Of a stretch of 39,911 nucleotides of DNA, positions 8,201 through 39,911 are shown in pieces. Source of the DNA: Tenuifilaceae bacterium (GTDB taxonomy: Bacteria > Bacteroidota > Bacteroidia > Bacteroidales > Tenuifilaceae); the NCBI GenBank assembly GCA_035380045.1, contig DAOSWM010000025.1, positions 1 to 39,911 on the forward strand, written 5' to 3'. Position 1 is the first letter of the stretch. The number at the start of each line of letters is the position of its first letter. The position numbers and the translations under genes were made by a program. The notes below the pieces were generated by a model. That model ran no database searches. It was not told the origin of the DNA and saw only the letters and a list, made by a program, of their open reading frames with translations.

Positions 8201-8884
8201 ATGAGAACAAAAAAAAGTAGAAAGGCCGACCTGGAGGGGAAAAAAGCAATCTTCTTCGAAATTGGGTTAATTATTGCCCTGGGCCTATCACTGGTTGCCT
8301 TTGAGTGGTCAACCAAAGGTGATGTGAACCTCCCCGACTACATTTTAAAGAAGCAACCAGAACCCGAAGTAGATGTCCCCATTTTCATTCCTGAAAAAAT
8401 CAAAACGCCTCCACCTCCCGCAATTTCCATTGAAACAATTGTTATACGAGATGATAATGAAGTGTTGGAACCCGTTGAGTCAAACCCCTTTGATGAGATT
8501 ACCGAGGAAACTTACAAAAACATAATTGAACTAGTAAAAACCGAGGAGGATGAGGTAGACGAAATTATTGACTTTACCGTTATAGAGACAAAACCCACAT
8601 TCATGGGTGGTGGGTTCAACCGTTTCAACGAGTGGGTTTTCAGCAACCTTTGTTACCCCGAAGAGGCAATTAAAAATGGCATTCAAGGCAGAGTTTACCT
8701 CGAGTTTATGATTGACAAGAATGGCAACGTAACCAACGTTCAAATCCTGAAAGGCATCGACCCGCTACTTGATGCTGAAGCCAGCAGAGTAGTCGCATCT
8801 TCTCCTCGATGGAATCCTGGTTCTCAGCGCAATAAACCCGTTAACGTTATGTTCAAGTTTTCAATCAACTTTAGGCTTAAGTAA
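8201..8884 (+). CDS. TonB-family energy transducer
   Basis: N-terminal TM anchor, Pro-rich spacer (KTPPPPAIS) and a C-terminal TonB domain (YPEEAIKNGIQGRVYLEFMIDKNGNV...). Confidence 0.7.
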   Translation: MRTKKSRKADLEGKKAIFFEIGLIIALGLSLVAFEWSTKGDVNLPDYILKKQPEPEVDVPIFIPEKIKTPPPPAISIETIVIRDDNEVLEPVESNPFDEITEETYKNIIELVKTEEDEVDEIIDFTVIETKPTFMGGGFNRFNEWVFSNLCYPEEAIKNGIQGRVYLEFMIDKNGNVTNVQILKGIDPLLDAEASRVVASSPRWNPGSQRNKPVNVMFKFSINFRLK

Positions 8885-37241: not shown

Positions 37242-37441
37242 AGTTTGCGTATTTTCTAAACAGCAAATATAAAAATAGTAACCAAGCAAACTTCACATAA
37301 TGCCAAAACATTATCCACAAAACAGAACTCTACTGTTAATAATTCGTATTATTAATGATTGGGTTACTGTTAAGGTATGTTGAAAATTTGGAACCCAAAC
37401 CTTTTAATATTTTATTTGTTATAACTTTGCAGAAATTGAGA

Positions 37442-39367
37442 ATGAGAATGGGAAGCCAATACCCTTTATTGAGTCGTATTAATTCACCACAAGACATAAA
37501 AAAACTTGGGGTCGATGATTTATTGGGGCTTAGCAACGAGGTGCGCCAATTCATTATCGACGTTGTGTCGTCCAATCCCGGGCACTTTGGTGCAAGTTTA
37601 GGCGTTGTGGAACTCACGGTTGCCCTGCATTACGTTTTCAACACGCCCAACGACCGCATTATTTGGGATGTTGGCCATCAGGCTTACGGGCACAAGATTT
37701 TAACCGGTAGGCGCGATTTGTTTCATACAAACCGAAAGTACGGAGGAATAAGCGGGTTCCCAAAACGAAGCGAAAGCGAATACGATGCTTTTGGAACCGG
37801 ACACAGCTCCACCTCAATTTCAGCAGCACTGGGAATGGCCCTCGCATCGGAACTAAAGGGAGAGGAAAGGCAAACCATTGCAGTTATTGGCGACGGATCG
37901 ATGACAGCCGGGCTGGCATTTGAGGGGTTGAATAATGGCGGATCGAAGAAGTCGAACCTGCTGGTTATCCTTAACGATAACAACATGGCCATTGACCCGA
38001 ACGTTGGAGCCCTAAAGGAGTACCTGCTCGACATAACTACCTCGCAAACATACAACCGTTTCAAGAAGGATGTGTGGAATCTTTTGGGCAAACTCGACAG
38101 GATTGCCCCAAGCACACGTTCCACCATTCAAAAACTTGAGAATGCCATTAAATCTGCAATCCTGAAGCAGAGCAATCTTTTTGAATCGTTGGGTTTTAGA
38201 TACTTCGGGCCAGTTGATGGTCACGATGTGGTTTACCTAACACAGGTTTTAAATGACCTAAAAAACATACCGGGGCCCAAGCTACTCCACTGCGTTACGG
38301 TAAAAGGGAAAGGGTTTTCACCTGCTGAGAAGGACCAAACGGTTTGGCATGCTCCTGGACTATTCGATAAAAATACCGGAGAGAGAATAGTTATTAGGAG
38401 CGAAAAACCTGCTCCTCCCCGATTTCAGGATGTTTTTGGCCATACACTGGTTGAACTTGCTGAGCAGAACCAAAAAATTGTTGGCATTACCCCTGCAATG
38501 CCCACTGGTTGCTCAATGAACATTATGATGGAAAAAATTCCCGAACGCACCTTCGACGTTGGAATTGCCGAGCAGCATGCAGTTACCTTTGCAGCCGGTT
38601 TGGCTGCCGAAGGACTGGTTCCGTTCTGCAACATTTACTCATCGTTCATGCAGCGCGCCTACGACCAGGTTGTACACGATGCTGCCCTGCAAAACCTGAA
38701 CGTAGTTTTCTGTCTCGACCGTGGCGGGCTGGTTGGCGACGATGGAGCAACCCACCACGGGGTTTTCGATATTGCCTACATGCGTGCAATTCCCAACATC
38801 ACCATTTGCTCACCCATGAATGAGGAGGAGCTGCGAAACATGATGTATACCGCACAGCAGCAGGACATGGGAACCTGGAGCATACGTTACCCAAGAGGGA
38901 ACGGCGTTATGACCAACTGGAAGAAACCTTTCCGAACCCTTGAGGTTGGAAAAGGAAGACAACTTAGGGATGGAACCGACATTGCCATTCTAACCCTTGG
39001 CCCTCTTGGAAACATCGCCGCAAAAGCCATTGAGAAACTTGCAGAGGAAGGAATTAGCGTTGCGCACTATGATATGCGTTTTGTTAAGCCCATTGACGAA
39101 CAGCTGCTAGCGCAAATTGGCAAACGCTTTAAGCACATTATAACCATTGAAGACGGTTGCCTGCAGGGAGGCTTTGGCTCAGCAATTCTGGAATGGCTGA
39201 ACGATAATGGACTTAGTACTCAGGTAATTAGGTTGGGCATTCCCGATAGGTTTATTGACCACGGAACGCAAGCTGAATTATACCGCGAGTGTGGTATTGA
39301 TGCAGAAGGAATTTACAGCGCAGCCAAAAAAATTGCAACACCTAAACTAATTGGGCGGGTAGTGTAA
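37442..39367 (+). CDS. dxs: 1-deoxy-D-xylulose-5-phosphate synthase
   Basis: [22 protein letters not shown] is the typical Dxs N-terminus. The TPP-binding GDG(S/A)MTAG and the transketolase-like Pyr and C-terminal domains are present. The ORF track start at 37355 adds a non-conserved 29-aa leader. Confidence 0.9.
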
Positions 39368-39436
39368 ATTCACGGTTCAACTTCTTGCCCAATAAAAAAA
39401 AGTAACTATTTTTGCATTCCCAACAAACCAGCATTT

Positions 39437-39523
39437 GCCCGGATGGCGGAATTGGTAGACGCGCTGGTCTCAAACACCAGTGGTAGCAATACCGTGCCGG
39501 TTCGACCCCGGCTCCGGGTACCA
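39437..39523 (+). tRNA. tRNA-Leu (anticodon CAA), long variable arm, CCA encoded
   Basis: The sequence is GCCCGGATGGCGGAATTGGTAGACGCGCTGGTCTCAAACACCAGTGGTAGCAATACCGTGCCGGTTCGACCCCGGCTCCGGGTACCA. The anticodon loop is CTCAAAC and the T arm is GCCGGTTCGACCCCGGC. Confidence 0.85.
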
Positions 39524-39555
39524 GAAGCCTCGAGAAATCGGGGCTTTTTTAATTA

Positions 39556-39911
39556 AAGTTGTCCTATGTACTACGTATACGTGATATCAAGTATTAACAG
39601 AAACTATACTTACATTGGGATAACAGATAATCCCCAAAGAAGGATAAACCAGCACAACAAGGGATACAATCGTACTACTAAGCCCTACAAACCCTTCTTC
39701 TTGGTTTTCACTGAAAATTTTCCTTCTCGAATTTTAGCAAGGGAAAGAGAAAAATTTCTTAAGTCAGGAATTGGGAGAGAATTTATTAAAAAAATTATTT
39801 CTGACAAGTGTGCCGGCCTGTCTACCCTGTCTCCCGACAGGCAGGCGACAGGTAGATTCGACCCCGGCTCCGGGTACAAAAAACTAAACCCTCAAGTATT
39901 TGAGGGTTTTT
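39556..39911 (+). CDS. GIY-YIG nuclease-family small protein (partial; no stop codon before the window end)
   Basis: Manual translation from the ATG at 39556 gives MYYVYVISSINRNYTYIGITDNPQRRINQHNKGYNRTTKPYKPFFLVFTENFPSRILAREREKFLKSGIGREFIKKII... This has the classic GIY-YIG pattern (YxVYxI...YIGxT.N..RR..QHN.G...T). The ORF track omits it because it is open-ended. The frame runs on through the duplicated tRNA fragment and a terminator-like hairpin, so the real C-terminus is uncertain. Confidence 0.6.
39857..39877 (+). repeat. 21-bp direct duplication of the tRNA-Leu 3' end (TTCGACCCCGGCTCCGGGTAC, identical to 39501-39521), an att-like repeat
   Basis: Exact match read from the sequence. The tRNA copy is followed by CA and the downstream copy by AA. 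Confidence 0.6.
39887..39911 (+). terminator. Terminator-like hairpin AACCCTCAA-GTAT-TTGAGGGTT followed by a T-run at the window edge
   Basis: Inverted repeat read directly. It lies immediately after the duplicated tRNA 3' fragment. Confidence 0.4.

Follow-up and report, generated by a model that had tools for sequence, protein, structure and literature searches.

SegB, a free-standing homing endonuclease of about 220 amino acids (aa) for which we know of no conserved hairpin, is by analogy the closest case to the tRNA-associated cassette described here. It is a GIY-YIG enzyme encoded within a tRNA gene cluster of phages T4 and T6; it cuts within tRNA genes, its motif RAWTSGAAC being the T-loop in reverse complement, and drives recombination-dependent tandem amplification of its own gene-plus-tRNA segment (PMC13096335). 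The locus studied by us lies at the end of a 39,911-nucleotide stretch of DNA from a Tenuifilaceae bacterium (GenBank assembly GCA_035380045.1, contig DAOSWM010000025.1, positions 1 to 39,911 of the forward strand), the whole of which is called the window below. Here, a tRNA-Leu(CAA) gene and a displaced piece of its 3' end enclose an open reading frame (ORF) for a very small GIY-YIG nuclease, accompanied by a 20-nt hairpin unit, and this arrangement is probably a homing-like selfish cassette which complements the tRNA gene that it splits. Like SegB, it places a GIY-YIG gene among tRNA genes, joins the tRNA at the start of the T-loop (in the window) and forms tandem arrays. SegB, in contrast, is encoded by phages and has a DNA-binding region in addition to its catalytic domain, whereas the family described here is chromosomal, with no match in the phage and plasmid collections searched; moreover, SegB involves no splitting of a tRNA, no replacement piece and no interrupted fragment. 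In its organization the cassette would resemble a free-standing homing endonuclease gene.

Integrase-bearing islands and prophages residing at tRNA 3' ends are similar to the cassette in that the tRNA is targeted and then restored by an element-borne 3' copy, with a direct repeat left behind. They differ from it in possessing an integrase or recombinase, since the cassette has neither, is only about 0.35 kb long, may insert into the 5' half of a tRNA gene, and carries a hairpin in the displaced fragment. As to the protein, its best sequence and fold matches are SLX1 and the UPF0213 proteins YhbQ and YazA. The latter two have been placed in the Slx1 family, SLX1 being a structure-selective nuclease (PMC7017083). 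Unlike SLX1, the protein family considered here has no zinc-finger domain and no SLX4 partner. To our knowledge, YhbQ-type genes are neither tRNA-linked nor repeat-associated.

A short dispersed palindromic hairpin combined with a single small nuclease-type gene and adjoining copies is also reminiscent of repetitive extragenic palindromic (REP) sequences, or REPINs, and their REP-associated tyrosine transposases (RAYTs). RAYTs are HUH tyrosine transposases acting through a covalent intermediate, and REPs are species-specific and abundant (PMC3116915, PMC2817692). Our protein is of the GIY-YIG and not of the HUH Y1 type, and the 20-mer is the same across phyla, sparse, and inserted in tRNA copies. 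The small dispersed repeats (SDRs) of Nostoc, described by Elhai et al. in 2008, are said to be hairpin-forming sequences of 21-27 nt, nested and often found in heptamer tandem repeats; we know of no enzyme assigned to them and of no reported link to tRNA or to GIY-YIG proteins. Nesting and a period-7 context are common to these repeats and to the 20-nt hairpin, whereas sequence and host range differ. In a literature search, we found neither mini GIY-YIG cassettes linked to tRNA genes nor the 20-mer hairpin described.

Results

The cassette is located on the forward strand next to a tRNA-Leu(CAA) gene at 39437-39523, predicted to be working (ARAGORN; Rfam tRNA score of 53 bits against a cut-off of 29). 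A first-pass annotation, made from the sequence alone, had pointed to an exact 21-nt repeat of part of this gene, and a repeat search bore this out: TTCGACCCCGGCTCCGGGTAC is the sole direct-repeat family in 38500-39911, with copies at 39501-39521 and 39857-39877 that are exact over 21 nt at a spacing of 356 nt. The probability of such a 21-mer pair occurring by chance within 1.4 kb is about 1e-7. Copy 1 comprises the T-loop, the 3' strands of the T-stem and acceptor stem, the discriminator A and the first C of CCA, and it provides the cassette-borne substitute for the tRNA end. Copy 2, without CCA and followed by AAAAAA, is the displaced native end of the tRNA. That annotation had correctly recognized copy 2 as the 21-mer, and had set its extent too short: GTGCCGG at 39810-39816 (+), identical to positions 39494-39500 of the tRNA (the end of the variable arm and the 5' strand of the T-stem), matches as well, and a 40-nt hairpin insert separates the two parts. 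The equivalent of this ORF-proximal stub is 8 nt long in the comparison locus L001 and 14 nt in L122. No second tRNA was detected by ARAGORN in the region; an Rfam search at E<=10 over 38900-39911 gave tRNA-Leu(CAA) as the only credible match, and over 39853-39911 it gave sub-threshold noise only. These results argue against copy 2 being a tandem tRNA gene or a tRNA-like structural RNA, an alternative raised by the annotation.

That the cassette was inserted into a pre-existing site is apparent from related contigs, in which the order of the orthologous locus is dxs, tRNA-Leu(CAA), zero, one or two cassettes, and dCMP deaminase (no organism closer to the window than about 80% Dxs identity was found in the database search). 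Locus L121 represents the empty site: dxs and tRNA-Leu(CAA) with its own terminator are followed by dCMP deaminase, with no cassette. In L122 there is one cassette, of another lineage (its ORF is about 67% identical), and in L120 two tandem cassettes of that same lineage precede dCMP deaminase and an S41 peptidase. The presence/absence comparison proposed in the annotation showed L121 to be empty and L122, L120 and the window to be occupied, and the same site has been occupied independently by a second cassette lineage. No integrase was found in the interval, nor among the called genes of L001-L004 and L120-L122.

The window lineage of the cassette is present also in L001-L004, downstream of tRNA-Gly(GCC)/tRNA-Leu(TAA), in an unrelated neighbourhood. 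The 5' part of the window tRNA (39437-39493) agrees with the empty-site tRNA of L121 at 56/57 positions and with that of L001 at 40/57. From 39494 (GTGCCGG) to 39877, the window is identical to L001 at 347/364 positions (95%), and this span takes in CCA, terminator, spacer, ORF, stub and hairpin; the two sequences diverge beyond 39877, where homology stops at the second GGGTAC. At this locus, native tRNA-Leu(CAA) genes have the sequence GGGTACAAA and encode no CCA, and copy 2 in the window lacks it likewise, whereas the working tRNA of the window reads GGGTACCAG, including an encoded CCA, as in L001. The combination of an L121-like 5' part with an L001-like 3' end indicates that the working tRNA is chimeric and that its 3' end is derived from the donor. 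Both junctions fall within 21-28 nt common to the two tRNA-Leu genes (39494-39521 and 39857-39877). From these alignments, the 95%-identical cassette has moved between tRNA-Leu(TAA) and tRNA-Leu(CAA), bringing the CCA end and a terminator with it. This terminator-like hairpin, GCCTCGAGAAATCGGGGC followed by TTTTTT (39527-39550, +), matches the one located after tRNA-Leu(TAA) in L001-L004; it was not flagged by a simple terminator scan and, like the hairpin splitting the tRNA fragment, had been overlooked in the first-pass annotation. Among the features of free-standing homing endonuclease genes, presence or absence at a conserved site and co-conversion of donor flanks with junctions in homologous DNA were found here; a DNA-recognition module of the kind that confers specificity for a long site was not.

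Between the two copies lies the nuclease ORF (39566-39911, +), with no stop codon by the window end. The annotation was right about its GIY-YIG nature, as confirmed by Pfam, and wrong about its start, which on translation is the ATG at 39566 rather than 39577, and about its being an N-terminus only, since the whole domain is encoded (about 39566-39799). PF01541 matches residues 1-67 with 64.2 bits (cut-off 22.6; E=1.3e-17), the domain being about 78 aa long. The product is 91% identical to P0001, an 89-aa protein, its closest relative being that of L001 (91% aa identity), and the homologues in general are mostly 77-89 aa and consist of the nuclease domain only. Many of them end in (C/R)AGLSTDR, and the DNA of this tail, GCCGG CCTGTC TACC GACAGG TAG A, is composed of the tRNA stub and a hairpin with a 6-bp stem, the stop codon lying inside the hairpin, which runs straight into TTCGA.

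In the window, the ORF tail from about 39800 crosses the stub, the hairpins, the tRNA fragment and the terminator, a read-through that had been called odd and that proved real. The hairpin ('PAL') block between the stub and copy 2 (39817-39856, +) is 40 nt long, G+C-rich, and made of two 20-nt units. The outer one, CCTGTCTAC plus CGACAGGTAGA (39817-25 and 39846-56), is split within its loop by the inner one, CCTGTCTCCCGACAGGCAGG (39826-45), which is missing from L001. Because of this extra nested unit, the usual stop of the family, TAG at 39853-55, is out of frame, and the read-through is thus a frameshifted ORF tail. The nested unit differs from the resident one at 3/20 positions, and there is no other copy of the hairpin in the 39.9-kb window. 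Given this divergence, compared with 95% identity between the window and L001 cassettes, the nested unit probably came from a copy in trans rather than from local duplication. Gene callers run family ORFs through tRNA fragments and hairpins at other loci too (P0003, P0005, P0034, P0062, P0246 and others), and 36/265 family proteins bear hairpin-encoded terminal peptides such as LPAGRQ, PACRQA, CLPAGR and LSTDR (also AGLSTDR).

On the basis of sequence and of a structural model, the protein is predicted to be a minimal SLX1/UPF0213-like GIY-YIG nuclease, its activity being putative. Among 23 diverse members, residues Y16, G18, R26, H30 and E62 are invariant and Y5 nearly so, and the window protein has all of them. 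The AlphaFold2 (AF2) model, with a predicted local distance difference test (pLDDT) score of 91, has the GIY-YIG fold, with strands (E) and helices (H) in the order E2-9, E15-20, H23-32, E44-52, H55-66 and H68-83. In Foldseek, SLX1 nuclease domains came first (32-38% identity), with a probability of 1.0 to SLX1 and UPF0213, and a profile search of PDB returned the UPF0213 proteins 1zg2 and 1ywl (E about 1e-9), then SLX1, and I-TevI weakly. No domain beyond the catalytic core was found by Pfam or in the AF2 model, and a C-terminal RING/PHD zinc finger of the SLX1 type is not present, the relatives being nuclease domains of 77-89 aa only. No NCBIfam model and no PADLOC defence family matched the protein, and PHROGs gave a weak match only, to a GIY-YIG homing-endonuclease family (E=8e-6). 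A tblastn search of phage and plasmid collections gave no family match, and nothing therefore points to a vector of phage or plasmid origin.

The family comprises 5,264 clusters at 50% identity (E<=1e-10). A genome scan with the family alignment detected 574 relatives, from which 80 loci were kept; together with other loci, this gave 98 ORFs. A tRNA gene on the same strand lies within 330 nt of 86/98 of them (73 Leu, 7 Arg, 2 Ser, 2 Asn, 1 Met and 1 Lys), and those with no nearby tRNA are mostly internal to arrays or located at the end of a contig. The Arg-, Asn- and Lys-linked ORFs group together in ORF clustering. The hosts are Bacteroidota, including isolate genomes of Algoriphagus spp. (L017, L030, L036, L054), Ignavibacteria, many Patescibacteria, Omnitrophota and others. 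Two arrangements occur: an intact tRNA, the ORF and a 3' tRNA fragment, as in the window, and its mirror image, in which a 5' tRNA fragment and the ORF precede the intact tRNA, the stop codon often lying 0-12 nt before tRNA position 1. The hairpin-split copy is upstream of the ORF in 51/70 cases. Arrays of two to three whole cassettes beside a single intact tRNA were found in L003 (1-800), L120 (1140-2250), L062 (2880-4330), L010, L028 and L039; in L120, arrays of long-loop hairpin variants lie between the units. At some loci (L157 300-420, L174 7250-7400, L241 1233-1289, L027 2754-2800) an intact tRNA stands beside an incomplete copy of itself that is split by the hairpin, and a nuclease ORF between the two is lacking.

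In both arrangements, the tRNA fragment is interrupted by the 20-nt unit, with the consensus CCTGCCTGCCGGCAGGCAGG, always on that side of the ORF which faces away from the intact tRNA. The consensus unit, with <=4 mismatches, was found within 330 nt of 72/98 ORFs, a lower bound since lineage variants, including that of the window, escaped the search. When the flanks of the unit are joined, the neighbouring tRNA is re-created and shows no duplication of the target. Insertions are concentrated at tRNA positions 14-15 and 22-24 (the D-loop and its 3' junction), 31-33 and 39 (junctions of the anticodon stem and loop), and 62-68 in the T arm (the T-stem/loop junction and the T-loop). The arm of the fragment distal to the ORF always reaches the tRNA end, and the ORF-side arm is short and variable, 5-40 nt. 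Variants of the unit, CCTGTCTGCCGACAGGCAGG and its reverse complement, preserve the 6-bp stem by compensatory change. Occurrence of both orientations beside ORFs favours a DNA-level over an RNA-level structure; a hairpin function in RNA, with a fixed orientation to transcription, found no support, as asymmetric variants stand in both orientations next to ORFs. Units are in tandem in L046, L042 and L056 and nested in the window and L041, and the variants follow ORF lineage, with TACC..TAGA in the window and L001 and a long-loop form in L120 and L122.

The exact 20-mer is also found elsewhere, at 35 viral-contig loci and at least 120 metagenome loci. Among the matches listed, a family ORF is near the exact hairpin at 1/35 viral loci and 9/127 metagenome copies, and about 10% of exact copies are in tRNA contexts. 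At 160 unique hairpin sites there was no target-site duplication, flanking inverted repeats of >=7 bp were mildly enriched (4 sites vs 0.6 expected), and site preference was weak, of the purine^pyrimidine type, a purine preceding the unit at 70% of the sites. When ORFs <=1.5 kb from the 160 copies were clustered all against all, the GIY-YIG family was the only one recurring across unrelated loci; conversely, the loci with family ORFs hold four further hairpin copies >700 nt away in 298 kb. The hairpin is thus a sparse dispersed repeat with this nuclease as its only recurrent gene partner. A heptamer context (lag 7) surrounds 5/162 dispersed copies, about 3%, vs 3/2978 control positions, and copies in degenerate tandem heptamer repeats were noted in L125, L127, L140, L168, L177, L228 and L085. 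In two viral contigs (L109 2239-2330, L086 about 8590-8660) the exact hairpin sits in the variable loop of tRNA-Met, where ARAGORN still calls a 92-nt tRNA; the insertion may be tolerated here, imitating a long variable arm. In L135 (4154-4173), the unit seems to have split a coding sequence: its deletion restores a continuous frame (...LVCPNCGAN|MRIIAFITE...), and the joined protein has no confident Pfam family.

Two further features complete the region. The terminator-like hairpin that the annotation had placed after copy 2 was confirmed by folding and by the terminator scan as a 10-bp structure, AAACCCTCAA GTAT TTGAGGGTTT (39886-39909, +), with its T run cut by the window end; it is unlike the cassette-borne one and is probably the native terminator of tRNA-Leu(CAA). 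Upstream, the Dxs ORF (37355-39367, +) encodes 670 aa from the first ATG, with an N-terminal stretch unlike Dxs, and its true start is probably later than the first ATG listed.

Discussion

The comparisons of loci demonstrate insertion, maintenance of a whole tRNA by the supplied part, polymorphism of the site, transfer through short homology, and arrays; they demonstrate as well that about 90 relatives, belonging to several phyla, combine an intact tRNA, the ORF and a hairpin-split tRNA copy, whichever of the two tRNA parts comes first. We estimate the probability that we are dealing with a homing-like, tRNA-targeting selfish cassette, complementing the tRNA gene which it splits, at about 60%. 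A homing-type GIY-YIG mini-element directed at tRNA genes was among the options considered in the first-pass annotation, and it is the one that has gained from our analysis, through presence and absence at the orthologous site, the 95%-identical cassette in another tRNA-Leu gene, tandem arrays, and the near-universal association with tRNA in the 98 relatives.

According to the mechanism that we propose, a cassette of about 356 bp would have been inserted at the T-stem/T-loop junction of tRNA-Leu(CAA), between 39500 and 39501. Its first part would be a replacement end, from T-loop to CCA, with its own terminator; by completing the resident tRNA, it would leave the host with nothing lost. The second part would be the gene for the GIY-YIG nuclease of about 77-89 aa, with transcription probably reading through from the promoter of the tRNA, and the third the short tRNA stub with the 20-nt hairpin unit, abutting the displaced, dead native 3' end. 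The nuclease may break a tRNA gene, or a stem-loop extruded from it, at a loop/stem junction, after which repair would copy the cassette from an occupied tRNA gene by means of short tRNA homology; such a break could make recombination through 21-28 nt efficient. The hairpin might then be the cognate DNA structure of the nuclease, travelling with its gene. In the window, a second unit would later have entered the loop of the first, frameshifting the ORF tail. As the protein consists of an SLX1-type catalytic core only, and the tRNA copies are split at loop/stem junctions, recognition of a DNA structure by the enzyme (the hairpin unit or extruded stem-loops of tRNA genes) is more likely than recognition of a long sequence.

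Several points weigh against this explanation. With no DNA-binding domain beyond the core, sequence-specific homing is hard to picture, and the intact tRNA beside the cassette retains the presumed target. In L001 and L122, the same terminator is present on both sides of the cassette, giving repeats of 50-63 nt, a configuration not expected if the cassette had come from a foreign locus. The location of more than 90% of the exact hairpin copies of metagenome and viral contigs away from a family ORF or a tRNA suggests that the hairpin has a life beyond simple homing, and the pairs of a tRNA and its split copy with no ORF are either remnants of ORF loss or products of hairpin insertion alone. The window copy itself may be impaired, given its frameshifted tail and no visible stop. 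Finally, apart from the Algoriphagus isolates, the comparison sequences are nearly all metagenomic.

Another explanation, which we consider rather unlikely and which is partly compatible with a homing-like cassette, would involve a pair similar to REP and RAYT: the 20-nt hairpin would be the mobile unit, scattered over genomes with no duplication of its targets, and the GIY-YIG protein its structure-specific enzyme, while the tRNA linkage would be the mere seat of a single 'master' gene and the split tRNA copies by-products of hairpins entering tRNA loops. Dispersal of the exact 20-mer over the viral and metagenome loci enumerated above, mostly far from a tRNA or a family ORF, is consistent with this proposal, as are the nested and tandem units (window, L041, L046, L042, L056, L120) and the gain of an additional, non-identical unit by the window after its divergence from L001. 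It could also account for the lack of target-site duplications, for compensatory variants that keep the 6-bp stem in both orientations, for co-inheritance of hairpin variants with ORF lineages, for the family ORF being the sole gene family that recurs near the hairpin, and for a hairpin identical across phyla in which the ORFs are 50-60% identical; SLX1-type enzymes do cut branched and stem-loop DNA (PMC7017083). However, GIY-YIG enzymes form no covalent intermediate with DNA, so that movement of the 20-mer would need other factors, and the density of hairpins in gene-bearing genomes is low, at about 4 distal copies per 298 kb. Wedging of the gene between an intact and a partial tRNA, and transfer of the cassette between tRNA-Leu genes, are also left unexplained by this proposal alone.

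The homing-like cassette has to be weighed, too, against a gene belonging to the host, resident and not mobile, that would be transcribed together with tRNA-Leu beside a decaying tandem tRNA duplicate, in which case the repeat would be common debris of a pseudogene. The common strand and tight spacing of gene and tRNA at nearly all loci would fit such a gene, as would its absence from phage and plasmid collections and the ordinary chromosomal location of its UPF0213/YhbQ relatives. Nevertheless, the empty orthologous site in L121, two lineages at one site, the arrays, the presence in another tRNA gene of a cassette of 95% identity that has brought a foreign terminator with it, and recurrence of the interrupted-fragment design, across distantly related phyla, at tRNAs for Leu, Arg, Asn, Ser and Lys largely refute this possibility already, and we regard it as improbable.

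Still less probable is a scar or left edge of an integrase island, or its decayed remnant, options considered in the first-pass annotation; in their favour, a direct repeat of a tRNA 3' end, present at both borders, is the classic signature of attachment (att) sites, attL and attR. The interval holds only an ORF with a 77-aa domain, the orthologous loci run from dxs and the tRNA through the cassettes straight into dCMP deaminase and S41 peptidase with no integrase, the neighbours in L001-L004 include none either, and the repeat unit is itself tandemly iterated (L003, L120); neither a remnant of site-specific integration nor a larger element continuing past the window agrees with these data. 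A group I intron in tRNA-Leu was rejected, as the insertion is in the T-loop, no intron model of Rfam matches, and the tRNA is continuous. An artefact of assembly or sequencing as the source of the duplicate or the hairpin has a negligible probability: palindromes and short repeats are prone to mis-assembly, and the tandem copies of L003 were possibly made by an assembler, but the same architecture comes from independent projects and from Algoriphagus isolates, with lineage variants and compensatory changes. Isolate genomes, variants and compensatory changes likewise led us to reject an origin of the hairpin in a sequencing adapter, and we know of no adapter that it matches.

A separate question is what the homing-like cassette would mean if our reading is right. 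Only tentatively, and with more doubt than assurance, do we suggest that the hairpin and the SLX1-like nuclease of about 77 aa make up a previously unrecognized kind of mobile DNA, spread across several bacterial phyla. The hairpin would then be among the smallest mobile units known, entering loops of folded DNA (tRNA genes, hairpins, itself) with no target duplication. By linking a minimal SLX1-like nuclease to a defined 20-nt DNA hairpin, the cassette provides a testable substrate for the uncharacterized proteins of the UPF0213/YhbQ type and a candidate for the enzyme behind 'very small mobile repeats'. Genome annotation is affected as well, by spurious tRNA fragments, mis-called starts and ends of ORFs, and assembly-prone repeats next to tRNA-Leu genes. 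The nuclease gene would spread by interrupting a tRNA gene and making good the lost part with a copy of its own, and harm to the host would be avoided by this carried replacement piece, unlike in the case of splicing (introns, inteins) and of integrase att sites. Such a system would be the equivalent of a tRNA-targeting island, free of any recombinase, and might provide a possible enzyme for mini-repeats of the SDR type. The tRNA genes of Bacteroidota, Ignavibacteria, the candidate phyla radiation and others would, if the homing-like reading is right, be hosts to a tiny, recombinase-free selfish cassette.

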